Source of the DNA: Gammaproteobacteria bacterium
Lineage (GTDB): Bacteria; Pseudomonadota; Gammaproteobacteria; Eutrophobiales; Eutrophobiaceae
Reading direction: 5' to 3'
NCBI GenBank assembly: GCA_965202915.1
Contig: OZ241847.1
Span: forward strand, 2,194,242 to 2,258,241
DNA length: 64,000 bases
Of this stretch, positions 1,260 through 18,784 are shown piece by piece (position 1 is the stretch's first letter; each line of letters starts with the position of its first letter). Made by a program: the position numbers and the translations under genes. The notes under the pieces were generated by a model that saw only the letters and a list, made by a program, of their open reading frames with translations, did no database searches and had not been told where the DNA came from.

Positions 1260-3146
1260 GTGAGTAGGCAATCAAATTTCAATGCCAGAAAACGCGGCAA
1301 CAGGAACCGACGCCGGCAAGCCAAATCGCAACCGGTTTCGCCAACAAGCTCAAAGCCATCAGCGACAATATCAGCAAGGGAAAGTATCCATATTACCCCG
1401 GCGCCGCACGGGCCGGAGTCACCCGTCTCCGCCGCGGCACCGGAAGCCGCCATCGCAACCGTATTCGCGCTGCCGGCACTATGCCTGTTAATCACCCTCA
1501 GTTACCTGCCCGCAACCTGGGCGGGGTTGGTGTGGGACGACGTCGTACTGACGATGGCCCAACCGTTGCAACATCTGTCCGGCCTATGGGATATCTGGTT
1601 CGCGCCCCGTTCCCTTTCCCAGTTTGAGGGACACTACTGGCCGCTTCTCTATACGTCTTTCTGGCTGGAGAATCGATTGTGGGGCGTCACCCCGGTCGGC
1701 TATCATATTGTCAACCTTGTACTACATGGCTTGGTCACAGTACTGCTATGGCGCCTGTTACTAAGGCTGGCCGTTCCCGGTGCCTGGTTTGCGGCGGCGG
1801 TGTTCGCGGTACATCCCCTGCACGTGGAGTCCGTGGCATGGATCATCGGACGCAAGGACGTGCTGGCCTCACTGTTTTATCTGGCCTGCGTGCTGAGTTA
1901 CCTGCATTTCATCGAGGCCCGGCGGCGCCGGTTTTATGCCGCGGCACTGGCACTGTTCATGGCGGGTCTGTTGTGCAAATCCATCCTGGTCACGCTGCCC
2001 GTATCGCTACTGATCTGGCACTGGTGGCAACAGGGGCGCGTGACGCCGGCCGACGTGCGCAGAGTGCTGCCGTTCCTGCTGCTGGGGCTGTGCGTCACGA
2101 TCGCCGACGTCTTGTTCTACAAGAGCAGGGATCCCACCGCCTTTGACTATTCAATCGTTGAACGGCTACTGATCGCGGCGCAGGCATTGTGGTTCTACCT
2201 GGGAAAACTGGTCTGGCCGACGCAACTGGCGGTCATTTACCCGCGCTGGGAGGTCGGCGTCGCCAACCCGCTGGCCTGGGGGTGTTTGATGGCCGCCTTC
2301 GCTGCGGTGGCGGCGCTGTGGTTCGGGCGCCACCGCATCGGTCGGGGGCCGCTGGCGGGTGCACTGTTCTTCGTGGTGACGCTGTCGCCGACGCTGGGCT
2401 TCGTGGACTATGGCTACATGCTGTACTCCTTTGTCGCCGACCGCTACCAATACTTGGCCGGGGCCGGTGTGATTGCAACACTGGCCGCAGCCGTAACCCT
2501 GGGCATGGGCAGACTGCCGGGCGCATACCGGCGCGGAGCGCAGGGCATGGCGGTGCTGCCGCTGGCCGCACTGGGCGTCATCACCTGGAACCAGGCGGGA
2601 ATCTACCGGGACAACTACACTTTTTACAGCCACGTCCTCTCTCTCAACCCGCAGGCCCGCTTCGCCCACCACAGTATCGGCCTGGAGTATCAAAAGCAGG
2701 GCCGCCACGAAGAGGCACTTGCCGCTTTTGAAACCGACTATCGTCTTGCCCCGGAGCAGCCGTCCCCACGGGTGCGCATGAGCAAGGCCCAGACCAGCAT
2801 CGGAACGTCGCTTGCGGCACTGGGCCGGATCCAGGAAGCGGAGGAGCACTTCCGGCGCGGGGTTGAGATCGCCCCGGACTTTCCGGGGGCCTACGATCAT
2901 CTGGGCGGGTTCCTGATCACGCACAAGCGTTACCGGGAGGCCCTCGAAGTTTTTCAAGCCGTCATCACCATAACGCCCGGCAATGCAAGGTTTCACGTCG
3001 GCCTGGGGGTCTCGCAGGCGGGCTTGGGACGGCTGGATGAGGCCTTGCAGAGCTACGAGCGGGCGCTGTTGATAGACCCCTTGCAGGAGCAGGCGCTAAG
3101 CAATCGCGCCAGCCTGTTGAAGTTCAGAGAGAGTGGCGGCGGATAG
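1260..3146 (+). CDS. Membrane glycosyltransferase-like protein with a DUF1736 domain and C-terminal TPR repeats (TMTC-like, paralog 1). A GTG start is predicted.
   Basis: 628 aa. It has a K/R-rich N-terminal tail, several TM segments with GHYWPLLYTSFWLE...GYHIVNLVLHGL...AVHPLHVESVAWIIGRKD (DUF1736-like), and TPR-like repeats in the C-terminal third. GC looks well above the backbone. Confidence 0.7.
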   Translation: MSRQSNFNARKRGNRNRRRQAKSQPVSPTSSKPSATISARESIHITPAPHGPESPVSAAAPEAAIATVFALPALCLLITLSYLPATWAGLVWDDVVLTMAQPLQHLSGLWDIWFAPRSLSQFEGHYWPLLYTSFWLENRLWGVTPVGYHIVNLVLHGLVTVLLWRLLLRLAVPGAWFAAAVFAVHPLHVESVAWIIGRKDVLASLFYLACVLSYLHFIEARRRRFYAAALALFMAGLLCKSILVTLPVSLLIWHWWQQGRVTPADVRRVLPFLLLGLCVTIADVLFYKSRDPTAFDYSIVERLLIAAQALWFYLGKLVWPTQLAVIYPRWEVGVANPLAWGCLMAAFAAVAALWFGRHRIGRGPLAGALFFVVTLSPTLGFVDYGYMLYSFVADRYQYLAGAGVIATLAAAVTLGMGRLPGAYRRGAQGMAVLPLAALGVITWNQAGIYRDNYTFYSHVLSLNPQARFAHHSIGLEYQKQGRHEEALAAFETDYRLAPEQPSPRVRMSKAQTSIGTSLAALGRIQEAEEHFRRGVEIAPDFPGAYDHLGGFLITHKRYREALEVFQAVITITPGNARFHVGLGVSQAGLGRLDEALQSYERALLIDPLQEQALSNRASLLKFRESGGG

Positions 3147-3391: not shown

Positions 3392-3841
3392 TCATATTCT
3401 CTTTTGTGGCTTCTCCAGCATTTTTCCAAGCTGATTCAGTTTTCTGTTAAGAAGTTGCCCGTCTTTTAGCTGACATTCCCATATCCGCAATACTTTCCAT
3501 CCGTTGTTTTTAAGCGTCTTGTTTACCAGCCTGTCACGTTTCTTGTTGGCATATATTTTTTTAACCCAAAAATCTCTGTTGTTTTGGGGAACTTGGCCGT
3601 GCTTTGGGCAATCATGCCAGAAACATCCATCCATAAAGATCGCAAGCTTACTGTTTGGAAATACAATGTCTGGCTTGCCGAAAATCGGGTATCTGCGTCG
3701 CCATCCTATCACATGATTTCGCTTCAATATTTTAAGCAGTTTCCCTTCGGTTGATTTGTTTCCAGTAGAACGCACCTTACCCATAATCCATGAACGTTTT
3801 TCTTTTGAATAGACGTCAACCATTTTTCTTGACGTTGTCAA
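3392..3841 (-). CDS. vsr: Very-short-patch-repair endonuclease Vsr.
   Basis: 149 aa. Canonical Vsr motifs are present: RSWIMGKVRSTGNKSTE...RYPIFGKPDIVFPNSKLAIFMDGCFWHDCPKH. It overlaps the upstream GHKL gene by 26 nt. GC is low. Confidence 0.9.
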   Translation of the reverse strand: MTTSRKMVDVYSKEKRSWIMGKVRSTGNKSTEGKLLKILKRNHVIGWRRRYPIFGKPDIVFPNSKLAIFMDGCFWHDCPKHGQVPQNNRDFWVKKIYANKKRDRLVNKTLKNNGWKVLRIWECQLKDGQLLNRKLNQLGKMLEKPQKRI

Positions 3842-5489: not shown

Positions 5490-6530
5490 TCAGCCCGAGT
5501 AAAAAGATTTCGCTATTCTGTAAGCAAGTTGCGGTGGCACTGCATTGCCTATTAGCTTGGCTGCGATCATTGAACTTTCACACGCAAAAACATAGTCTTC
5601 GCTGAACGTTTGTAGTGTTGCACCTTCTCTTAGGGACAATCCTCTGTTCTCCTCGGGATGGGCAAATCGACCATTTGAAATCCCGTTAAATCTCGTTGTA
5701 ATTGTTGAAGAGGGTTTATCCCACCTCAATCTCCCATAAACATCCCGAAAAGAATTATCTTTGCCTTTGTAGGTGTTCAATTGAAGCTCGGGGTCGTCTT
5801 TCCATGCGCTCCTTGTCCCGCCGTCTTTGGGTGTTAGCTTGAGCCGTCTCAAATTTTTTTCGGATAACGATGAAACTGTATCCATGAAATTATTTTCATC
5901 CTTATAACCGGATTGCAGAACGGGAAATCCATTATGGGTCCCTATAAATTCCTTCAATACGGATTCTTTCTCCGGTTGGGGAAGATCAATCGATTTTTTT
6001 ACCCTGGAAGCAATCAAGATAAATCTCTTTCTGCTTTGCGGAACTCCATAATACTTGGCATTGATAATATCCTCGACAATCTTATATTCTTTTTCAAGTT
6101 TCCGACAAAATTTGTCAAGCCCACTTTCCGCTTTGTTTCTTTTTATTCCCGGAACATTTTCTATAATTACATAACCCGGTTTGTAGTAACAGACAAAGCG
6201 CCAAAAATGATCAAGCAGTCCTCTGGTGTTCTCCGATGATCTTTTGTTCGTATTCAGGGTGGTCCAGTGCTGGCATGGGCTGCACCCTATAAAGATCAAA
6301 GAGTCGTCATTGCGTTTAATCCCACAATTTTTTTCCAGAAAAGTTCGTGGTGTGTCTTCTATATCTTTTAGAAAAAATTTTGTCCCCGGATGATTTGCCT
6401 CATATGTCTCTTTACAATCCTCATCCACATCTATCCCGGCAACAACCTTTACTCCGGCCATCTTTAACCCTTGGGACATGCCGCCGGCACCGCAAAAAAA
6501 ATCAACCGCTCTTAAGGATTTTTTTCTCAT
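5490..6530 (-). CDS. dcm: DNA (cytosine-5)-methyltransferase, Dcm-type.
   Basis: 346 aa. Motif I is DFFCGAGG, motif IV is GCSPCQHWT (PCQ), motif VI is ENV, motif VIII is QSRKRFILIA and motif X is GNAVPP. Confidence 0.9.
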   Translation of the reverse strand: MRKKSLRAVDFFCGAGGMSQGLKMAGVKVVAGIDVDEDCKETYEANHPGTKFFLKDIEDTPRTFLEKNCGIKRNDDSLIFIGCSPCQHWTTLNTNKRSSENTRGLLDHFWRFVCYYKPGYVIIENVPGIKRNKAESGLDKFCRKLEKEYKIVEDIINAKYYGVPQSRKRFILIASRVKKSIDLPQPEKESVLKEFIGTHNGFPVLQSGYKDENNFMDTVSSLSEKNLRRLKLTPKDGGTRSAWKDDPELQLNTYKGKDNSFRDVYGRLRWDKPSSTITTRFNGISNGRFAHPEENRGLSLREGATLQTFSEDYVFACESSMIAAKLIGNAVPPQLAYRIAKSFYSG

Positions 6531-8872
6531 TCGCCACCGCCCAAACTGGCTATTAATGTTACTATATGTGCCGCAACCGCGGACGAGGCAGCACGCACGA
6601 CAGAATCTTCGTCATATTCCTCCCGGCCATCGGAATTATCTTCGGAGTCACTGACAAGTCTCTTATACATTGCTAATGTGAGAATGCCCACCCCCACCCT
6701 GAAGCGGTGCCTGATGATCTCTCTCTTACCCTCATCTGATTCTTTGGAAATTAAGTACAAGAGATATTTATTGGCTTTGTTCACATATATGGTTAGCGTT
6801 TCTCCTCTGGACACATGACCGCCCGACTCTTCATTGTAGTTATGTTCATCCCAATATTCTTGCTCCACCCACTCAATATTCGGAAATTCCCGAGCCGGTC
6901 TCTCTTGATTGTTTGTGTCTGTTTCATCCCCGGGCGGGTTTCTTTGAGTTTCTTCCGCACTGGCAATTTTGATCATTACGTCAAAAGTCAGAGGATCTGT
7001 TCTTTCCGGGTTTGAGTCATCAAAGCCAAACTGAACGGCAATTTCATCTCCTACTTTTGCCCCCGCGGGAGTTATGACTTTTATTCGGAATTTTCCATTA
7101 CGCAGAGAACCCGAATGTGGCAATATATCAGGTGATGGGTGAATAAACTCCCCTCGGTTGGCATCTCTTATCAAATAATCATTTTGAGCGTCTGTTCTAC
7201 ATTCAATTCGTCTGTAAGAATTTATGGGAACACTCTTAACATTGCCCTCCTCCAAGTGCGTGGGAGTTAAATATGTGGGGAACAATTTCCCTTCATATTG
7301 ATCCTCACCTCCGGATGTTGCAATCTGACTGTCAACAATACTTCCAACATCAAATAGTTCTTGAAGATCCGGATTATCTTTAACAAGATTGGAAAGAAAT
7401 TCTTTATCGGTCTGCTCTTCTATTTGCTCGCTAATACGACGGTTTTTTATTTCTCTTGCATATTCCCTAAGTTCTCCGCTCCCGGCCAAGGCATCTATAA
7501 TAATTTTCTTTAGTTCTCTCGTGAGCCCTATGTCCGCCATTCTTTCCCTGTCCGATTTAAACACGGCGGCTCGCGCCGTATTATCCATGGCATTACAATC
7601 TATTTGAACAATTAAATGGTTTCTCAAATCATCCAGTCGCGCCTTCCGCAACAGACTGGCTCTGTCCGCAGATTGGGACTGACCGTTGATCGTGTAGAAC
7701 ATTCTGTATGGCTGTTTGCGCAAATAATCCTTCATTTTCTTCAACCCAAAATAAGATATTCGGATAGTCCCCAAATCCGAATTTTCAGAATTTTCAATTA
7801 CGTTTTCCAAGTCAACTTCGCTTTCCTCACTTCTTTCATCATCGGATTTGAGCACTATATTCATACCGGAAAAAGTTCTCGGTGCAATACCCTCCGCTCT
7901 AAGACCGCTCCTTGTGGGTTGAGCATCAAAATCATAAAGACGAACAGGCAAGGCACAATTTATAAGGTTGGTCGTAAGCGCATCATATAGTCCTATATCA
8001 ACCGCACGGGCACGAGGCCCTATATCGTATTCATATAACTTCACAATGCTGCCACCATTGATGACGACACCGATATCCTCTCTGCCAAAAGCCTTGATTT
8101 CATCGGTTTCAAAACAGGCAATTTCTCCGTCGGGACAAAAATACTCAACCACTGGCAAATCCTCTCCTTCTCGAACTCCTCTTACCCTTATCAAAGTCCA
8201 TCCCCATAGACCATCCGAACCGTAAGTGGTTCTTTTGGACAGAATAAACTTATACATCCCCGCCCTGATATCTGCTCGGGTACAAAAAGGTATGGATCCG
8301 GTGCTACCCATATTAAATCGACCTTGGACAAACGGAATGCCTTCCTTATTCTTTTCTCCAAGAGATAAAAAAGTTTTTCCAAAATCTGTATGATTTTGCC
8401 CCTCACCAAAATCAACTATCGTATAGTTTGGACAAATATCATTTCTCCTTCCTGTTCTCTTAATACCAATCAAAACACTTTTTTCAGCCAGATCAGTCCT
8501 TTGATTCGGGCTTAACAAAGCCAACCTGCCTTCTTGAACTTTGGGGAAAAAGTGTTTGACAGCCTCGCTCATATCTTGGGGAGCTGATTCACCATAAAAA
8601 TCTATTTGCTCTTCCTTTGCCCTGCGCATAAGGATTGCGTCAATGGAATTAATGATTAACTCTGCCAACGCACCGACTGGTTGGCTCGTTTGGACGCTCA
8701 CCCTGTCCCAATTTTTATCCGCGCCGCCGTAAGGCTTCCAATTTTCATCAGCGCTAAATTCAGGCTGGCTTTCCATGAACCGATTAACGTCGTCGGCTGA
8801 CAAAGCACCGAGAAACTTATTCGCTATTAACTTTGAAAGTGGGCTGTTGAAAAATTTTCTCGAATCATTCAT
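6527..8872 (-). CDS. Large protein with an N-terminal GHKL ATPase-like head and a ~550-aa uncharacterised C-terminal region. It is the first gene of the low-GC cassette.
   Basis: 781 aa. Bergerat motifs are AELIINSIDA (motif I), IVDFGEGQNH (motif II) and QGRFNMGSTGS (motif III). I recognised no motifs in the C-terminal region. It overlaps the dcm start by 4 nt, which suggests translational coupling. Confidence 0.6.
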   Translation of the reverse strand: MNDSRKFFNSPLSKLIANKFLGALSADDVNRFMESQPEFSADENWKPYGGADKNWDRVSVQTSQPVGALAELIINSIDAILMRRAKEEQIDFYGESAPQDMSEAVKHFFPKVQEGRLALLSPNQRTDLAEKSVLIGIKRTGRRNDICPNYTIVDFGEGQNHTDFGKTFLSLGEKNKEGIPFVQGRFNMGSTGSIPFCTRADIRAGMYKFILSKRTTYGSDGLWGWTLIRVRGVREGEDLPVVEYFCPDGEIACFETDEIKAFGREDIGVVINGGSIVKLYEYDIGPRARAVDIGLYDALTTNLINCALPVRLYDFDAQPTRSGLRAEGIAPRTFSGMNIVLKSDDERSEESEVDLENVIENSENSDLGTIRISYFGLKKMKDYLRKQPYRMFYTINGQSQSADRASLLRKARLDDLRNHLIVQIDCNAMDNTARAAVFKSDRERMADIGLTRELKKIIIDALAGSGELREYAREIKNRRISEQIEEQTDKEFLSNLVKDNPDLQELFDVGSIVDSQIATSGGEDQYEGKLFPTYLTPTHLEEGNVKSVPINSYRRIECRTDAQNDYLIRDANRGEFIHPSPDILPHSGSLRNGKFRIKVITPAGAKVGDEIAVQFGFDDSNPERTDPLTFDVMIKIASAEETQRNPPGDETDTNNQERPAREFPNIEWVEQEYWDEHNYNEESGGHVSRGETLTIYVNKANKYLLYLISKESDEGKREIIRHRFRVGVGILTLAMYKRLVSDSEDNSDGREEYDEDSVVRAASSAVAAHIVTLIASLGGGE

Positions 8873-8924
8873 TTATGAAAATTCACCTAGGTTTTGGTAT
8901 TTAATCAGTACATATCCATAACCG

Positions 8925-9420
8925 TTAAAAATCATTCCCGGAACCAAATGGCCACCCACTTGCGGAATAGGCCCGGATGTCATCATCGCCGGCATATTTG
9001 AACCAAAAAACCGCCGCCGGCACAACCGAACATTTGCCAAGCCGGCAGTTTTCCACCACCACCTTGAGCATGGCGTATTCGCCGTTGACTTGGCAGGCGA
9101 AAGCCAGCATATCGAATGCTACTTGATACGCCAAATGATGTCGAGTTTAATATATCCAGTTTGACCATTACGCATGTCGGTGATGTCGAGATCTTCACGC
9201 AGTGCTTTATCGCCATTGGTTAGGACCATTTTGTAACTGTATTTGTCGCCGCCCGCTAGAATCGCCGGACATACGGACTCCCCGAACCAAGAATGATAAC
9301 ATTAGCTCCCTCTACAATCCAGGTATTTCCCAACGCCTGTCCTTCCAGAACACCTATCGACCAAACCATCGGTTACTGACAGAACAACATCTACGGACGT
9401 GGCGACAGCGGTAATTGGGT
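8925..9420 (-). pseudogene. Degraded ORF fragments (frameshifted remnants) at the boundary between the low-GC cassette and the second TMTC-like gene.
   Basis: Reverse-strand reading gives ...ILAGGDKYSYKMVLTNGDKALREDLDITDMRNGQTGYIKLDII* and then, in another frame, ...KVVVENCRLGKCSVVPAAVFWFKYAGDDD... The fragments are short and out of frame, and I recognised no family. Confidence 0.3.
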
Positions 9421-9788
9421 TATCATGGAATCATCCGATTCACACCATCTCCAGAATATACGGGCGGCAGCATCGGACACTTCCTTGGGTATGTGTGCTA
9501 CCCGCACCTCCAATTAACACGGCCGAGTTGAGAATGTGAACCAAGTATTTCGTTGGTAATTACCCCACATCCTTCGACTTATCAGGTAATGAGACAAGAC
9601 TCGGCAAGGTTACGGGACTTCCCCGGTCACCGTCTGTGCACAATCTTATAATGCTTTTCTGCGAAAATTATGAGGATTGTGTAAAATCCTCTCTTGTATA
9701 GGATTAGGATACCCTCTTGCCACACTTCAGACTGAAATCTGCCTTCTCCTCAAGAAAGGAGTGGCGCAAGGTGAACAGATAATCGGAT

Positions 9789-11648
9789 ATGGCGGCCCGA
9801 AAAAACCGAAACAAGGCCCGGCGCAGGCAAATGAAGCTGCAAACCACCGCCAGGCGCCCCGGCACGGTGCGTAGCCGGACCGGCCCCGTACCCATCAAAT
9901 CGTCGCCGGGCGGGTTGCAATCGCTTTTTTCCGGGCTCAAGCGGAGCGTACTTCACGGGGACCCGATCCCACCCGCACTCGCGGCCACGGCGCTGTGGCT
10001 GCTGATACTCATCAGTTACCTGCCCGCGACCTGGGCCGGTTTCGTGTGGGACGACTTCGCGTTCACGGAGGCCGAACAGGTACTGCGCCCATCCGGTCTT
10101 TGGGATATCTGGTTCAAGCCGCACTCGCTGCAGAATGAAGGCCATTACTGGCCGCTCCTCTATACGACCTTCTGGCTGGAGCACAAGTTGTGGGGGCTGG
10201 ACCCGACCGGTTATCATATCGTCAACCTGCTGCTGCACGGGTTGACCACGCTGTTGTTGTGGCGCCTGCTGCTGCGGCTGGCCGTGCCGGGCGCCTGGTT
10301 CGCGGCGGCGGTGTTCGCCGTGCACCCCCTGCACGTGGAGTCGGTGGCATGGGTTATCGGACGCAAGGACGTGCTGGCGGGGCTGTTCTCCGTGGCCTGC
10401 GTGCTGAGCTATCTGCGTTTCGTGGAAGCTGGTCGCCGCGCACGCTATACGCACTACTTTCGGGCACTGGCGCTGTTCGTGGCGGGACTGTTGAGCAAAT
10501 CCATTGTCGTCACCCTGCCGGTGTCGCTGTTGATCTGGCACTGGTGGAAGCAGGGTCGCGTAGCCGTGACCGACGCACTGAGGACGCTGCCGTTCCTGCT
10601 GCTGGGGCTCGGCATCACGATCATCGACTGGTGGTACTACAAGGACCGGGAAGAGATTGTCCTGGAGGACTACTCGTTGATCGAGCAGACGCTGAACGCG
10701 GCGCACGCGCTGTGGTTCTACGTTGGCAAACTGGTCTGGCCGGCGGAACTGGCAGTCATCTACCCGCGCTGGGAAATCAACGTCAGCGAGCCACTGGCCT
10801 GGGCGTATCTGGTCACCGCCGTCGCGGTGGTGTGGCTGCTGTGGTTCTACCGCGACCGCATTGGCCGGGGGCCGCTGGCGGGGGTGCTGTTCTTCGTGGT
10901 GACGCTATCACCGACCCTGGGGTTCGTCGAGTACGGTTTCATGCAGTTCTCGCTGGTCGCCGACCGCTATCAGTACCTGGCCGGGATCGGAGTGACGGCG
11001 GGCCTCGTGGCCGCCGCGGCCCGCGTTGCAGGCCGGCTGTCGGGTACGCCGGCGAGGGGCGTACAGGCCGCGGCGGTGCTGCTGCTGGTCGTGCTGGGAA
11101 CCATCAGTTGGAACCAGGCGGGCATCTACCGCGACAACTTCACGTTCTACCAGCATATCATCGCTCTCAACCCGCAGGCCAGGAACGCCTGGTACAACCT
11201 TGGCAGAGAGTATTCCATGCAGGGCCGCACGCAGGATGCGCTGGCCGCGTATCTCACCGCCGGCGAGCAGCGCCCCGACCACGTCTGGGCGCATATCGGC
11301 GCCGGGCAGATGGCCGCGGAACTGGGAAGGCTCGCCGAGGCGGAGATGTACCTGCAACGCGCGCTTGCGGTTGACCCGAGTTTCCCGGAAGCCCTCAACA
11401 ATATGGGAGCGCTGCGGCTCAGACAAAAACGCTACAGCGAGGCGCTCGAACTCTTTGAGACCCTGATTGAGATGCAGCCCGAGTACGCCAAGGTTTATTC
11501 TGGCATAGGCGTGGCCCTGGCCGGACTCAGGCGGTTTGAAGAGGCGTTGCGGAGTTTTGACCGCGCGCTTGAACTGGACCCGTCACTGGAAGAGGCGCGG
11601 GTCAACCGCGAGCACGTATTGCGGAACTCCAAAAGCGAGAGCAGGTAA
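9789..11648 (+). CDS. Membrane glycosyltransferase-like protein with a DUF1736 domain and C-terminal TPR repeats (TMTC-like, paralog 2).
   Basis: 619 aa. It has the same architecture as the 1260..3146 product, about 60-70% identical across the TM core (GHYWPLLYTTFWLE...AVHPLHVESVAWVIGRKD), with a diverged N-tail and TPR region. Its stop overlaps the start of the next gene. Confidence 0.75.
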   Translation: MAARKNRNKARRRQMKLQTTARRPGTVRSRTGPVPIKSSPGGLQSLFSGLKRSVLHGDPIPPALAATALWLLILISYLPATWAGFVWDDFAFTEAEQVLRPSGLWDIWFKPHSLQNEGHYWPLLYTTFWLEHKLWGLDPTGYHIVNLLLHGLTTLLLWRLLLRLAVPGAWFAAAVFAVHPLHVESVAWVIGRKDVLAGLFSVACVLSYLRFVEAGRRARYTHYFRALALFVAGLLSKSIVVTLPVSLLIWHWWKQGRVAVTDALRTLPFLLLGLGITIIDWWYYKDREEIVLEDYSLIEQTLNAAHALWFYVGKLVWPAELAVIYPRWEINVSEPLAWAYLVTAVAVVWLLWFYRDRIGRGPLAGVLFFVVTLSPTLGFVEYGFMQFSLVADRYQYLAGIGVTAGLVAAAARVAGRLSGTPARGVQAAAVLLLVVLGTISWNQAGIYRDNFTFYQHIIALNPQARNAWYNLGREYSMQGRTQDALAAYLTAGEQRPDHVWAHIGAGQMAAELGRLAEAEMYLQRALAVDPSFPEALNNMGALRLRQKRYSEALELFETLIEMQPEYAKVYSGIGVALAGLRRFEEALRSFDRALELDPSLEEARVNREHVLRNSKSESR

Positions 11649-13414
11649 TGGCGAAACGGAAAAACCCCCGCCCCGCCACTCGCCGGCGCCGACAACCTGG
11701 GGCAGCGGCGCCGACAACGGCAACGATGCCCTGGCGGTGGCGCGCGGGCGACGCCTTATTTGCCGCCGACCGCCCGCGGCTCGCCGGCGACGGCGAACAC
11801 TGGACGTATTTCTGGCCGCTGCTGGGCGCGGCCCTGCTGCTGCGCGCTGCCATCGCCCTGTGGGGTGACTTTGTGCTGCATCCGGACGAGATCATGCAAT
11901 ACCTGGAGCCGGCCCACTATGTGGCCTTCGGCAATGGCGTCCTCTACTGGGAATATCTCCACGGCGCACGCAGCTGGCTGATCCCGGGCGCGATCGCCGG
12001 CGTGCTGAAGGCGCTGGATGGCTTGGGGCTGGCGCAGCCGGCCATCTATATCGCCGTGGTGAAACTGTTGTTCTGCCTGCTGTCGCTGTCGGTGCCGTGG
12101 GCCATGTACCGCTTCACGCAAATCACGGTCAACGAGCGATCTGCTCGGCTGGCGCTGATCTTCGGCTGCTTCTGGTACGAACTGGCGGCGCTGGCGCACA
12201 AACCCTTCACCGAATTGTTCAGCACTTCCATTTTCATGGTCGTGCTCGCTCTGTCCGTGGGCAGGGAAGCGGAAAGACCCGCCAGGCTGTTTGCCATCGG
12301 CCTGCTGGCGGCACTCAGCGGTGCGGTGCGCCTGCAGTACGCACCCGTGGCGTTGCTGCTGTTGTTGCTGCGCTCGGTATCCCTGCGCAACGGCGTTGCC
12401 GGGCTGGTGTCGTTATGGGCGGGCGCCGGGCTGCTGACGCTGCTAGTGGGTATCTTCGAATGGCAGACCTGGGGGGCGCCGTTTCATTCCTACCTGAGCA
12501 ACTTCTTTATCAATCTCGCCATTGACCCCGCACGCGCCGGTGAATCAAGCCGATGGCTTCTGTTGGGGCAGTTGGCCGCGGCCAGCGGCGGCATGGCACT
12601 GATCGCCTTTGCCGCTGCGCTGCCCAGGGGGCGGCGGCATCTGCTCATCCTGGTGACGAGCGCGGTGATACTCGTCCTGCACCTGCTCCCGGAGCATCGC
12701 GAATACCGCTTCATCCACGTCCTGATCCCGTGCTGGTTGATGCTGCTGGCGGCCTGGATCGCGCGCTGGGGCGACGGATTGTCCGGCGAACGAGGCCGGA
12801 TATCCGCACTGGCGCGGCGCTGGGGCGCGGCGGCGGTGCTGGCCTTCGGCATCCCAGCCCTACTCAATGCGTTTCCCTGGCAGAGCCGGGTGTACCAGAG
12901 TTTCTCCGTGGAAAAACCGGTGTACTACTTGCGCAATCAGGACCCGATATTTGAGATCATGTCTTTCCTGGCCGCCCAGGACGACGTGCACGGAGCTCTC
13001 TACCATACCCGGGAATACAACGCATACTTCAGCACTGGCGGCTATTACTACCTGCACCACGACGTCCCTTTCTATACCGCGCAAGACACCTGGCAAACCA
13101 TCAGGGAACGGCACCCGGCGGTGCCTCAGGAATCGTTGGTTTCCCATATCGTGACCGAGGCCGACGGCCCCGCCATCCAGGGGTTCGAACGACTGCTCCG
13201 GCGTGGAAACCTGGCGCTGTGGCGGCGCCGGGACAACGACAGTGCAGTCCCCCGCTGGCGCGAGCACGTGATCAAGGTAAGCCATGCGGACCTAAACGAC
13301 CTGGTGAGCAGAACCATGCGGCGCCTGAACGCCTCTTCCATGCTCGACCTTTTCGTAGCCGATGACTTGTACTGGGTGGAGGCGCCACCGTTGTTTGAGT
13401 CGGCGGATGAATAA
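11648..13414 (+). CDS. GT22-like (PIG-B/ALG9/ALG12-type, Glyco_transf_22) membrane mannosyltransferase homologue.
   Basis: 588 aa. The GT22 signature LHPDEIMQYLEPAHYVAFGNG (HPDE..Q..E) sits near the N-terminus. The protein is multi-TM and GC-rich. Its start overlaps the upstream stop (TAATG). Confidence 0.6.
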   Translation: MAKRKNPRPATRRRRQPGAAAPTTATMPWRWRAGDALFAADRPRLAGDGEHWTYFWPLLGAALLLRAAIALWGDFVLHPDEIMQYLEPAHYVAFGNGVLYWEYLHGARSWLIPGAIAGVLKALDGLGLAQPAIYIAVVKLLFCLLSLSVPWAMYRFTQITVNERSARLALIFGCFWYELAALAHKPFTELFSTSIFMVVLALSVGREAERPARLFAIGLLAALSGAVRLQYAPVALLLLLLRSVSLRNGVAGLVSLWAGAGLLTLLVGIFEWQTWGAPFHSYLSNFFINLAIDPARAGESSRWLLLGQLAAASGGMALIAFAAALPRGRRHLLILVTSAVILVLHLLPEHREYRFIHVLIPCWLMLLAAWIARWGDGLSGERGRISALARRWGAAAVLAFGIPALLNAFPWQSRVYQSFSVEKPVYYLRNQDPIFEIMSFLAAQDDVHGALYHTREYNAYFSTGGYYYLHHDVPFYTAQDTWQTIRERHPAVPQESLVSHIVTEADGPAIQGFERLLRRGNLALWRRRDNDSAVPRWREHVIKVSHADLNDLVSRTMRRLNASSMLDLFVADDLYWVEAPPLFESADE

Positions 13415-15956: not shown

Positions 15957-16329
15957 TCGTAATATTTACTCAGTAGTGGACCAATCCACCGCTGTTTTTT
16001 CTTTGATAATACTCTGCACTTTTTTGATTGGATATAGCGAGTTCAAGGATGTGTTTGACTCACTGCTAAAAGACAACCCTATCTTCCACATGTCCCGACA
16101 AGCGGCCCTATTCAACCAAAAACTGGCTGACACGTCCCCGCATCGGGGTTGGCTACCCAAATACAACGCCATCCGACCTCATAAAGGAGTTGGACTCAAA
16201 ACACCCGTATGGATTACTATCGATAACAACAAAATTTATACAATATGTGGTGGACCCCATACATAGAGTAGTAGAAATATCGCTATGTGGGAGTATATAT
16301 GCAGATAAGGCATAGGGAGTTTCCTAATA

Positions 16330-17304
16330 ATGAAATTAGATGAATTAAATAAATACAGAAGGCTAATACTCATTATTAGTGTTATTGCCTTTTCTCTTTT
16401 GTTAATTGGTGTGTCTGAGGTCTTTCTAGCCAGATATATGGGCCTGGGTGAGCCTGTACTTTATGACTCATCTCCAATATACGGGTATAGGCCATTGCCT
16501 GGAAAAACATACTCTAGATTTTATGGAAAGGAGGTAAAGTTTAATAATCTGGGGCTAAGGTCTGAATCTGATTGGAACGAAGATATTGAAGATAAAATAC
16601 TTTTTCTTGGTGATTCCGTAACTTATGGAGGTTCTTATATTAGCAATACGGAATTGTTTTCTTATCTATCTGTAAAAAATCTGGGAAACAATTACGTTAG
16701 CGGGAATGCCGGGGTAAATGCATGGGGGGTTGAAAATATATATGGTCTTATTGTCGAGTCAGGGTTCATGCCCGCGGGAATTTACGTCACAGTTATTCCA
16801 GAATCTGATTTTTACAGAGGCTTGACTAGAATACACGGGCTCCCTTTCTATAATGAGGATCCAAAATATGCTTTTCAGGAGCTATTTGATTATTTTATTA
16901 TTAATAAAAATAATAATAAGCGATACAAAGGTTGGCAACACTATGCTGATAAAAACACAAAGGCTTTCGTTATAGAAAAAGCAGTGAAAAAACTAAAGAT
17001 GATCGATGTATTGTTAAAGGAAAAGGGGTATAAGCACTTAATCTTTATTTCTCCCAAAAAAAGGCAAGTGATAAAACATTTGGAGAAAGATCTTCTGAAA
17101 AAAGATCCATTGGTTAAAAAATTTCTAACGAAACATGGGCTGTTTCCTTTCTATATAAAAGATGAAATAAATAAGCTTGATTTATTGAGGGAGGAAATAG
17201 AGGGTATCTATCATGGCGACCATGACAACATACATCTTTCAGAAAAGGGCCATAGGCTCTGGGCAAGGATTATAACAAATAAGTTACAAGAGTTACTGCT
17301 TTAG
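16330..17304 (+). CDS. SGNH/GDSL-family hydrolase with an N-terminal TM anchor.
   Basis: 324 aa. FLGDSVTYGG is a GDSx block I, and an N-terminal hydrophobic segment is present. The gene is AT-rich. Confidence 0.6.
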   Translation: MKLDELNKYRRLILIISVIAFSLLLIGVSEVFLARYMGLGEPVLYDSSPIYGYRPLPGKTYSRFYGKEVKFNNLGLRSESDWNEDIEDKILFLGDSVTYGGSYISNTELFSYLSVKNLGNNYVSGNAGVNAWGVENIYGLIVESGFMPAGIYVTVIPESDFYRGLTRIHGLPFYNEDPKYAFQELFDYFIINKNNNKRYKGWQHYADKNTKAFVIEKAVKKLKMIDVLLKEKGYKHLIFISPKKRQVIKHLEKDLLKKDPLVKKFLTKHGLFPFYIKDEINKLDLLREEIEGIYHGDHDNIHLSEKGHRLWARIITNKLQELLL

Positions 17305-17593
17305 TTGGCGTTAAGCCCTGGGTTGGCAGCTAACGATTGCGGGTTTTATTCTGTCGCCATGGGGTCGCTTTGTTGGACAATATATTGCATTAATCTCAAC
17401 AAGTTAATCGCAACCAAAGAATCATTTGGCAACGTATTATCATAATAATTATCTTTCCATTCATAGGGTTATTGTACCGATTTACTTGGCCTGGCTGTAT
17501 AAGCTCAGAAACATATTGCGGGCAATATCCTCGGCGTATATCATGTCATCGTGTGTGACGTTCCGCTATCGCAAGACAACCAGGATAAACAAT

Positions 17594-17935
17594 ATGACTG
17601 ATACCGTATTTGGAAAAATCATAGCCGGGGAAATACCCGCGGACGTGGTCTATGAGGATGACTTGTGTCTGGGATTTCGTGACGTCAATCCTCAGGCACC
17701 GACCCATATACTGCTGATTCCGAAAAAATCTATCGCTAAATTATCCGAGGCAGGGCCGGAGGATCAGGCGTTGCTTGGCCACCTGATGTTGACCGCCGCT
17801 AAAATTGCCGGACAGGAAGGTGTTGGTGATCGCTTCCGGCTGGTGATGAATAATGGTGCTGATGCCGGTCAAACCGTATTCCATCTGCATATCCATATCC
17901 TTGCCGGTCGACAATTGGACTGGCCCCCCGGGTAG
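17594..17935 (+). CDS. HIT-family (histidine triad) nucleotide-binding protein.
   Basis: HLHIHIL is a histidine-triad motif. The start was taken at MTDTVFGKIIAGEIP, which is internal to the track ORF 17426..17935. Confidence 0.8.
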   Translation: MTDTVFGKIIAGEIPADVVYEDDLCLGFRDVNPQAPTHILLIPKKSIAKLSEAGPEDQALLGHLMLTAAKIAGQEGVGDRFRLVMNNGADAGQTVFHLHIHILAGRQLDWPPG

Positions 17936-17968
17936 CCTGGCCCGTCCCGGCAATAAAGATGCGGCTTT

Positions 17969-18784
17969 TTAGTGCTTCTTTTGCCGGCATAAAAGCGAAA
18001 TAAAATAGGCTGAGCAAGCGATGAGCACCATGACGGATGCCGCCGGCAGATCAGGCTGATAGGAAACGGCCAATCCAAGCCAGGTGACCATTAATGCAAT
18101 CAGGCAGGCAACGATCATCATTTTTTTCAGTGATTTTGTGAATAGAGCCGCGGTCGCGGCCGGCATGCTTAACAAACAGATAACCAGTATTAATCCAACG
18201 ACTTGTATTAATAATACGACGGTCAGTGCAATCAATAAAAACAGCAAATAATAGATTGCCTCGACGTTAATGCCTCGAATGCGGGCAAATTCTTCATCAA
18301 AGACCGATAACAGTATTTGTTGGTAAAAGATCGATACCACGCTGATGATCACTATATCAAGAACCAGCATCAGAATAAGATCGGAATCAGTGATCAGCAG
18401 GATATTGCCAAATAGATAAGCGAATAAATCCACGTTATATCCCGGCGTCTTTGACAGGAAGATAATGCCGATTGCCATCCCGGCGGACCATATTGCGGCA
18501 ATTAAGACGTCTTCCTGCTGTTTCCATTTCAGATTAATCCAGCCAATAATCATTGCCGCGATAATCGCGGTGATGATTGCGCCGTGCATCGGCGACGCAC
18601 CAAAGAAATAGGCGATACCCATGCCTGCCAGAACCGAATGCGCTATCCCGGCACTGATGCTGCTGATCCTCTTGACAACGACGTAACTGCCAATGATGCC
18701 GCAACCGATGCTCGCCAGCAGACAGGCAATCACCGCATATTGCATGAATTGGTAATTGCTTAATAAATTAATGGCTTCATTCAT
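17969..18784 (-). CDS. znuB: Zinc/manganese ABC transporter permease (ABC-3 family).
   Basis: 271 aa, multi-TM, typical of the ZnuB/MntB family. It sits in an operon with an ATPase and a His-rich binding protein. Confidence 0.8.
   Translation of the reverse strand: MNEAINLLSNYQFMQYAVIACLLASIGCGIIGSYVVVKRISSISAGIAHSVLAGMGIAYFFGASPMHGAIITAIIAAMIIGWINLKWKQQEDVLIAAIWSAGMAIGIIFLSKTPGYNVDLFAYLFGNILLITDSDLILMLVLDIVIISVVSIFYQQILLSVFDEEFARIRGINVEAIYYLLFLLIALTVVLLIQVVGLILVICLLSMPAATAALFTKSLKKMMIVACLIALMVTWLGLAVSYQPDLPAASVMVLIACSAYFISLLCRQKKH

Follow-up and report, generated by a model that had tools for sequence, protein, structure and literature searches.

A widespread 781-residue GHKL protein family found beside DNA methyltransferases may be a MutL/MORC/GyrB-type ATP-gated clamp without a nuclease domain

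A gene for a 781-amino-acid (aa) protein was analysed in a 64,000-nucleotide (nt) stretch, hereafter the window, of contig OZ241847.1 from a Gammaproteobacteria bacterium (assembly GCA_965202915.1). An original prediction, made from the letters of the sequence, had described a GHKL head fused to a ~550-aa region with no recognisable motifs and had proposed that region as a candidate effector or nuclease domain. The results presented here led us to favour another reading, which we judge to have an even chance of being right: the 781-aa protein would be an ATP-gated clamp of the MutL/MORC/GyrB type and not a nuclease, with the effector supplied in trans. The coordinates and length given earlier for the open reading frame (ORF), 6527–8872, were borne out, and the gene was assigned to the minus strand, with an ATG start and a stop codon at 6527–6529. 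Because an in-frame TAA lies directly upstream of the ATG and AGGTGA stands 10 nt before it, the N-terminus of the protein is well defined.

An AlphaFold2 model was built on 35 homologues, with a mean predicted local distance difference test (pLDDT) of 77.5 and a predicted template modelling score (pTM) of 0.69, and the domains read from it are listed in Table 1. Foldseek placed GyrB 43-kDa ATPase fragments at the top rank for this model (E 5e-6, probability 0.98–1.0), and the alignments to structures with GHKL and transducer domains span 237–302 residues, which is longer than the GHKL domain alone. Since these are two-domain targets and the aligned lengths extend beyond the GHKL part, the model indicates that residues ~61–445 form a complete GHKL+S5 ATPase module of the MutL/MORC/GyrB-43K type. 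Membership in the GHKL superfamily is supported by the presence of motifs I–IV and by fold matches to solved GHKL ATPases, and the assignment of an S5 domain is supported by the alpha+beta secondary structure that directly follows the GHKL domain. Limiting the ATPase motifs to the first ~230 aa was therefore too narrow, as motif IV lies at 274–278 and the transducer runs to ~445. The helical extension at residues 1–60 may serve as a strap when the heads dimerise in an ATP-dependent manner.

The part beyond the transducer was modelled as a succession of smaller elements. Residues 663–712 form three strands and two helices, all of them short, followed at residues 713–781 by a long helical hairpin that is interrupted by a disordered loop (746–755). 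The best Protein Data Bank (PDB) matches for the immunoglobulin (Ig)-like sandwich and hairpin parts were adhesins, filamin and stalks. As a fallback, the original prediction had offered an S5-like transducer or a dimerisation domain; the transducer was supported by fold matches at residues 301–445, and a role of the C-terminal hairpin as a dimerisation element is plausible. In addition, the Ig-like domain or the linker may have a role in DNA recognition.

Table 1. Predicted domains and conserved loops of the 781-aa protein, the other genes of its cassette, and gene neighbours of family members at other loci (L numbers)
Feature	Location	Strand	Basis
Residues 1–60: helical N-terminal extension, conserved W45 and N54	8693..8872	-	Model, alignment
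Residues 61–300: GHKL (Bergerat) ATP-binding fold	7973..8692	-	Motifs, model, fold matches
Residues 301–445: alpha+beta S5-type transducer	7538..7972	-	Model, fold matches, alignment
Residues 446–510: helical linker/arm, three helices, conserved L468	7343..7537	-	Model, alignment
Residues 511–529: disordered connector, pLDDT <50 at 509–524	7286..7342	-	Model
Residues 530–640: all-beta Ig-like sandwich with TDAxN[DE]Y..R loop and D619	6953..7285	-	Model, fold, alignment
Conserved loop of the Ig-like domain	7164..7194	-	Alignment
Residues 641–662: variable disordered linker, here acidic (DETDTNNQERP)	6887..6952	-	Model, composition
Residues 663–781: beta-meander and helical hairpin	6530..6886	-	Model
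C-terminal VNxDN motif	6768..6780	-	Alignment
C5 cytosine DNA methyltransferase, 346 aa	5490..6530	-	Pfam 5.9e-52
Second GHKL protein, 553 aa	3816..5477	-	HATPase_c_3 1.8e-22, Hypoth_Ymh HEPN 5.4e-19
Vsr (very-short-patch-repair endonuclease)	3392..3823	-	Pfam 3.3e-16
Family gene between hsdM-S fusion and hsdR in a type I restriction-modification operon (Virgibacillus xinjiangensis)	L061, 5962–12753
Family gene between a helicase-MTES_1575 gene and GmrSD	L024
Family gene 11 nt upstream of an HNH gene	L033
YhcG PD-(D/E)xK neighbour	L047
DndB-like neighbours	L028, L032
Neighbour with a McrB-N domain (Pfam MrcB_N)	L050

Conservation was evaluated on an alignment of 246 full-length members and the window protein, which was thinned to 148 non-redundant members below 60% pairwise identity; a position was called conserved at ≥85% among these 148. 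Motif I (E71/N75/D78), motif II (D154/G156/G158, with Q159 also conserved), motif III or the ATP lid (G184/G189/G192, of low pLDDT) and motif IV (G274/K278) were all invariant or ≥95% conserved. Further conserved positions of the ATPase region are T167, S170, K176, F181-V182-Q183, W223 and R229. The transducer invariants are P309, G336, N396-G397-Q398 and R442. The last of these, conserved at 99%, pairs with an invariant Arg (R309) of the partner MORC-like family, to which the second GHKL protein of the cassette belongs, in an hhalign comparison with a match probability of only 39.5%; this comparison covered 298 columns (E 3e-4), starting ~25 residues ahead of motif II and ending shortly after the transducer Arg. 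In modules of this type, a conserved basic transducer residue contacts the gamma-phosphate of ATP, and R442 is a candidate for that residue.

Beyond residue 450, Gly, Pro and Leu make up most of the conserved positions, and the only polar ones are T560, D561, N564, Y566, R569, D619, N698, D700 and N701. They fall largely into two Asx-rich (Asp/Asn) loops: the loop of the Ig-like domain, with the consensus T560-D561-(A/V)-x-N564-(D/E)-Y566-x-x-R569, and the C-terminal motif V-N698-x-D700-N701 (VNxDN). Both loops resemble the calcium-binding loops of cadherin-type Ig domains. No conserved His, Lys, Glu or Cys was found after residue 450 among the 148 members. The earlier finding that PD-(D/E)xK, HNH and GIY-YIG motifs are absent holds family-wide, and no conserved catalytic motif or fold match of the PD-(D/E)xK, HNH, GIY-YIG, PLD or half-pipe type was seen in the family. 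Moreover, no model or sequence in Pfam, NCBIfam, PADLOC or the PDB matched residues 300–781. The ~550-aa tail in which a nuclease or effector had been sought was resolved into transducer, linker, Ig-like sandwich, and meander plus hairpin, none of which matches a nuclease fold. The structure and fold search and the check for invariant residues that had been recommended to decide the matter thus spoke largely against a nuclease in the tail.

These conserved loops are also the basis of a rival reading, which we consider unlikely, in which the 781-aa protein is itself the restriction endonuclease (REase) of a two-gene restriction-modification (R-M) system, with a new nuclease site in the Asx-rich loops (T560, D561, N564, D/E565, R569, D619, N698, D700 and N701) and the GHKL module regulating it. 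Outside the ATPase module, strong conservation of polar residues is confined to these loops, but conserved His, Lys or Glu residues are missing and several of the proposed site residues vary: D561 is Asn in 6%, N564 is Asp in 16%, and D700 is Ala in the window protein, as in 15 of the 247 aligned sequences. Topoisomerase- or recombinase-like Tyr/Arg catalysis at Y566/R569 was considered separately and rejected, because Y566 is replaced by Phe or Trp in 9%. Gene context can be read both ways. The 781-aa gene appears translationally coupled to a methyltransferase gene, and many loci hold only the 781-aa gene and a methyltransferase, with or without Vsr; yet a third of the fully flanked loci (54 with ≥3 kb on each side, among 84 family loci in which ORFs were called and neighbours clustered) lack a nearby methyltransferase, and in such a setting a classical REase would kill the cell. 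A precedent is provided by R.HgiDII, a GHKL-containing type II REase with an unassigned C-terminal fold (PMC2441816) for which an NCBIfam BbrUII/HgiDII model exists, but the 781-aa protein shows no similarity to that model, and neither an Ig-like sandwich nor a helical hairpin is a known nuclease fold.

The acidic stretches near the C-terminus that had been pointed out earlier do exist, at residues 641–662 and 746–755. They are low-pLDDT loops with the lowest conservation (0.31 and 0.23, respectively). The equivalent of 641–662 is rich in Lys and Arg in most members (median +13.6 charges per 100 aa), indicating that the acidity of this linker is lineage-specific.

The ORF is a real gene, as shown by the number of its homologues. 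A word-index search in which 8,000 candidates were scored returned 351 homologues at E≤1e-3, and those among the matches listed were mostly full-length (~760–830 aa) and all unnamed or "hypothetical". When 1.84 billion cluster representatives were searched exhaustively, at least 1,372 clusters at 50% identity were found (E≤1e-3), with 411 of the matches reaching E≤1e-30 and alignments running end to end down to ~25% identity. In a scan of one genome per species, relatives were found in at least 576 genomes, that is, in at least 0.3% of species genomes. The bacterial carriers belong to Proteobacteria, Chloroflexota, Nitrospirota, Acidobacteriota, Bacteroidota, Firmicutes and Patescibacteria, and the archaeal ones include Methanoregula, Methanocalculus and haloarchaeal plasmids; many metagenome-assembled genomes of sponge symbionts are among them. 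Eight plasmid matches were found, every one annotated as "hypothetical protein". A phage gene family was ruled out as the identity of these proteins by the counts of 0 members among INPHARED phages and 9 loci in IMG/VR.

Domain libraries detected little of this family. No NCBIfam or PADLOC model matched the window protein or any of 45 diverse members. The sole Pfam match of the window protein was HATPase_c_3 (E 0.11, 12.9 bits vs. a cut-off of 25), which also matched 4 of the 45 diverse members at E≤0.01. A search of PDB sequences with the family profile returned only a chance match to a designed myoglobin (E 0.44).

In the window, the 781-aa gene heads a minus-strand operon whose genes overlap or nearly abut, followed by genes for the C5 methyltransferase, the 553-aa GHKL-HEPN protein and Vsr. 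Its stop overlaps the methyltransferase start in an ATGA (gaATGAga), and judged from this arrangement the two genes are translationally coupled. The 553-aa protein consists, in order, of a MORC-type HATPase_c_3 domain, an S5 region and a C-terminal Hypoth_Ymh HEPN domain (FRNPTHH, Rx4H). Its first ~380 aa match the NCBIfam BbrUII/HgiDII model NF050001 (3.6e-66, below the cut-off), covering only positions 2–397 of the 659 in the model. For Vsr, the ATG at 3823 is a likelier start than the listed TTG at 3841, and the gene overlaps the end of the 553-aa gene; with Vsr included, the cassette comprises four genes, not three.

The cassette (3.4–9.5 kb) has a guanine plus cytosine (GC) content of 38–44% vs. 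~50% for the window background. The flanking TPR/PMT_2-like genes (1260–3146, 9789–11648 and 11648–13414) have 62–65% GC, so that cassette and flanks deviate from the background in opposite directions, and the two TPR genes flanking the cassette look paralogous. Between the cassette and the next gene, the ~880 nt at 8873–9750 contain no ORF above 80 aa, and GC changes from 43% to 52%. Direct repeats and att-like sites on the flanks of the cassette were looked for, as were promoters and terminators, and nothing above chance was found. A second low-GC patch (36–44%) at 16000–18000 with plus-strand ORFs at 16330–17304 and 17426–17935 may be another acquired segment.

Across the 54 fully flanked loci, a DNA methyltransferase is adjacent to the family gene in 35, of the C5 type in 30 and of the N4/N6 type (PF01555) in 5. 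The C5 methyltransferase gene lies on the strand of the family gene, either downstream or upstream of it, or else upstream in divergent orientation, and these three arrangements indicate that the link is functional and not merely inherited. Vsr is present in 14 loci and a second GHKL protein in 10, each time together with a C5 methyltransferase. The second GHKL protein has a constant MORC-type HATPase_c_3 head, and only its C-terminus varies: it is Ymh-HEPN in the window and close relatives, a histidine-kinase-type HATPase_c in L037, L038 and L052, and MzaB-like in L028, while in L026 the protein is full-length HgiDII/BbrUII-like (model positions 9–643 of 659, E 1.4e-87). Defence surroundings are frequent at loci with no recognised methyltransferase; other such loci lie among housekeeping genes. 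Individual defence neighbours are listed in Table 1, and PIN genes also adjoin some family loci. The place between hsd genes that a family member takes in Virgibacillus is held in EcoprrI by the anticodon nuclease PrrC.

Vsr and the MutL-like fold together raise a second alternative, namely that the 781-aa protein is a MutL-like accessory of a mobile Dcm–Vsr pair, stimulating Vsr at T:G mismatches, as MutL of E. coli does, and having no defence role. A functional interaction between MutL and Vsr is cited as established in PMC2292703, and Vsr occurs in the window operon and in 14 of the 30 loci linked to a C5 methyltransferase. The other 16 of these 30 loci have no Vsr, however, and some family members are paired with N4/N6 methyltransferases, whose activity poses no deamination problem. 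Furthermore, members lie within a type I R-M operon or adjoin HNH, GmrSD, PD-(D/E)xK, DndB-like and PIN genes, and the co-occurring second GHKL protein bears toxin-type effectors such as HEPN. We regard a pure repair role as quite improbable.

Two further arrangements were observed. In L005 and L012 (sponge-symbiont Gammaproteobacteria AqS3; 6358–11132), a member sharing 56% identity with the window protein has no methyltransferase and is bracketed by proteins of 481 aa and 240 aa that have no Pfam match, and a DUF4011/AAA_11/AAA_12/MTES_1575 helicase-nuclease of 1,596–1,802 aa lies nearby on the opposite strand. In L037 (3302–10373), L038 and L052 (Chloroflexota/Dehalococcoidia), a four-gene arrangement is conserved, comprising genes for an HATPase_c_3 plus histidine-kinase-type HATPase_c protein, a ~330–365-aa protein with no Pfam match, a C5 methyltransferase and the family protein. 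This arrangement is reminiscent of the two-component-like elements associated with R-M in Bellieny-Rabelo et al. (2021).

The closest description in the literature is that of paraMORC1 by Iyer, Abhiman & Aravind (2008; Biol Direct 3:8; PMC2292703), which combines GHKL and S5 domains with a distinct C-terminal extension. Its genomic neighbours are a MORC gene and a gene for a DNA methylase, in most cases a cytosine methylase; a helicase is absent, and HNH is present in some cases. Compared by description only, the 781-aa family fits in every described respect, in both domains and neighbours: a second HATPase_c_3 gene together with a C5 methyltransferase was found in 10 of the 54 loci and in the window, and HNH in L033. 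The 781-aa protein is best placed in the paraMORC class, probably as paraMORC1. No structure of the C-terminal extension is given in that paper; in the model presented here, this part of the 781-aa protein forms an Ig-like domain and a helical hairpin, neither of which holds catalytic residues. Two marks of MORC proteins in the strict sense are missing from the 781-aa protein: HATPase_c_3 stayed below threshold, and the motif GhXhhpXXRhl was not found in the S5 domain when read by eye, the family consensus around the invariant G336 being G-L-x-x-R-L. Identity with the ATPase modules of MORC and SMCHD1 (PDB 5ix1, 5of9 and 6mw7) is only 11–14%, and CW, coiled-coil and hinge domains are lacking. 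Although the fold is MutL-like in comparison with the N-terminal domains of MutL, MLH1 and PMS1 (PDB 7p8v, 9n2k, 4p7a and 3h4l), no MutL C-terminal dimerisation/endonuclease domain, DQHA(X)2E(X)4E-type motif or NCBIfam MutL match was found in the protein.

Orlowski & Bujnicki (2008; PMC2441816) described GHKL-containing putative type II REases (R.HgiDII/BbrUII, R.NmeAIP and R.EcoUTORF4938P), in which R.NmeAIP combines GHKL with Hypoth_Ymh and the C-terminal domain of R.HgiDII has no assigned fold, and they called for experiments. The 553-aa neighbour shares the architecture of R.NmeAIP, and the same kind of C5-methyltransferase cassette surrounds these REases, of which HgiDII-like and histidine-kinase-type versions adjoin family members. 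The 781-aa protein had no match to NF050001 at E≤1, and none of the 45 diverse members matched it. No model of these GHKL-containing REases matched the 781-aa protein, which recurs beside them as a partner and is not one of them. Related proteins with effectors have been described: the paraMORC-Ymh HEPN proteins were proposed as analogues of PrrC/RloC (Anantharaman et al., 2013; PMC3710099), and paraMORC3 is a Shedu nuclease fusion, type I-D, represented by VcSduA (PMC12137116). VcSduA is a defence protein that shares with the 781-aa protein a GHKL ATPase head followed by a middle domain resembling a clamp. It differs in ending in a DUF4263 PD-(D/E)xK nuclease on which its defence depends, and Pfam and PADLOC detected no such domain or motif in the 781-aa protein.

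In the ATP-gated clamp that we favour, the C-terminal hairpin would hold the protein as a constitutive dimer, as in MutL, MORC and Hsp90, since the small-residue hydrophobic faces of the hairpin (GVGILTLAMY, SSAVAAHIVTLI) would otherwise be exposed. ATP binding would then close the N-terminal heads, and the flexible linkers and Ig-like domains would enclose DNA as a ring. Its part would be that of an ATP-dependent sensor or motor subunit in an R-M-like defence linked to methylation, in which the co-translated C5 methyltransferase would mark self DNA and perhaps supply sequence recognition. Cutting would be performed in trans by a partner, which in the window would be the second GHKL protein (553 aa) with its HEPN RNase domain and elsewhere an HgiDII-type C-terminal domain or an HNH or PD-(D/E)xK protein. 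Vsr would repair the T:G mismatches that result from deamination of 5-methylcytosine. In MutL-alpha, MLH1, which has no nuclease activity, pairs with the nuclease-bearing PMS2, and the cassette likewise holds an effector-less and an effector-bearing GHKL protein.

Several points weigh against such a clamp. Eighteen of the 54 loci have no recurrent partner at all, and in another 20 a C5 methyltransferase with or without Vsr is the sole recurrent partner and no effector was identified; at these loci the protein would have to act alone or use an unlinked partner. By composition, no domain of the protein is notably basic. The conserved loops TDAxN[DE]Y..R and VNxDN are left unexplained by the clamp and could form a metal site. 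In addition, dimerisation, DNA binding and ATP hydrolysis of the protein are all inferred, and we found in the literature neither an experimentally characterised GHKL–methyltransferase defence system of this type nor a study of the 781-aa family.

A third alternative is restriction that needs no nuclease, a possibility to which we assign a low probability. In this case a clamp loaded on unmethylated target DNA, possibly via the methyltransferase, would block replication or transcription by entrapment or compaction. Eukaryotic MORCs silence chromatin, and MORC3, MORC2 and SMCHD1 were given as the best structural match in support of this idea. The minimal conserved module, consisting of the 781-aa protein and a methyltransferase, contains no nuclease, and the protein has no catalytic residues outside the ATPase. 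However, a prokaryotic precedent is lacking, the composition shows no basic DNA-binding surface, and the frequent effector-bearing GHKL proteins and stand-alone nucleases suggest that the system as a rule includes cutting. If this nuclease-free reading were true, the family would represent a prokaryotic counterpart, and possibly an ancestor, of MORC-mediated silencing in eukaryotes.

In 2008, two groups flagged the GHKL ATPases of R-M cassettes as unsolved with respect to the job of the ATPase and the place of the nuclease (PMC2292703, PMC2441816). The 781-aa family is large yet invisible to NCBIfam and PADLOC, with only sub-threshold HATPase_c_3 matches in Pfam, and the present work adds a map of its domains and a catalogue of its partners to the computational description of the paraMORC class. 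The map argues that the family is a non-catalytic clamp partner of effector-bearing MORC-like proteins, and it provides constructs and point mutants for work on the coupling of a MutL/MORC-type clamp to DNA methylation in prokaryotic immunity. The family is also relevant to how eukaryotic MORCs arose.

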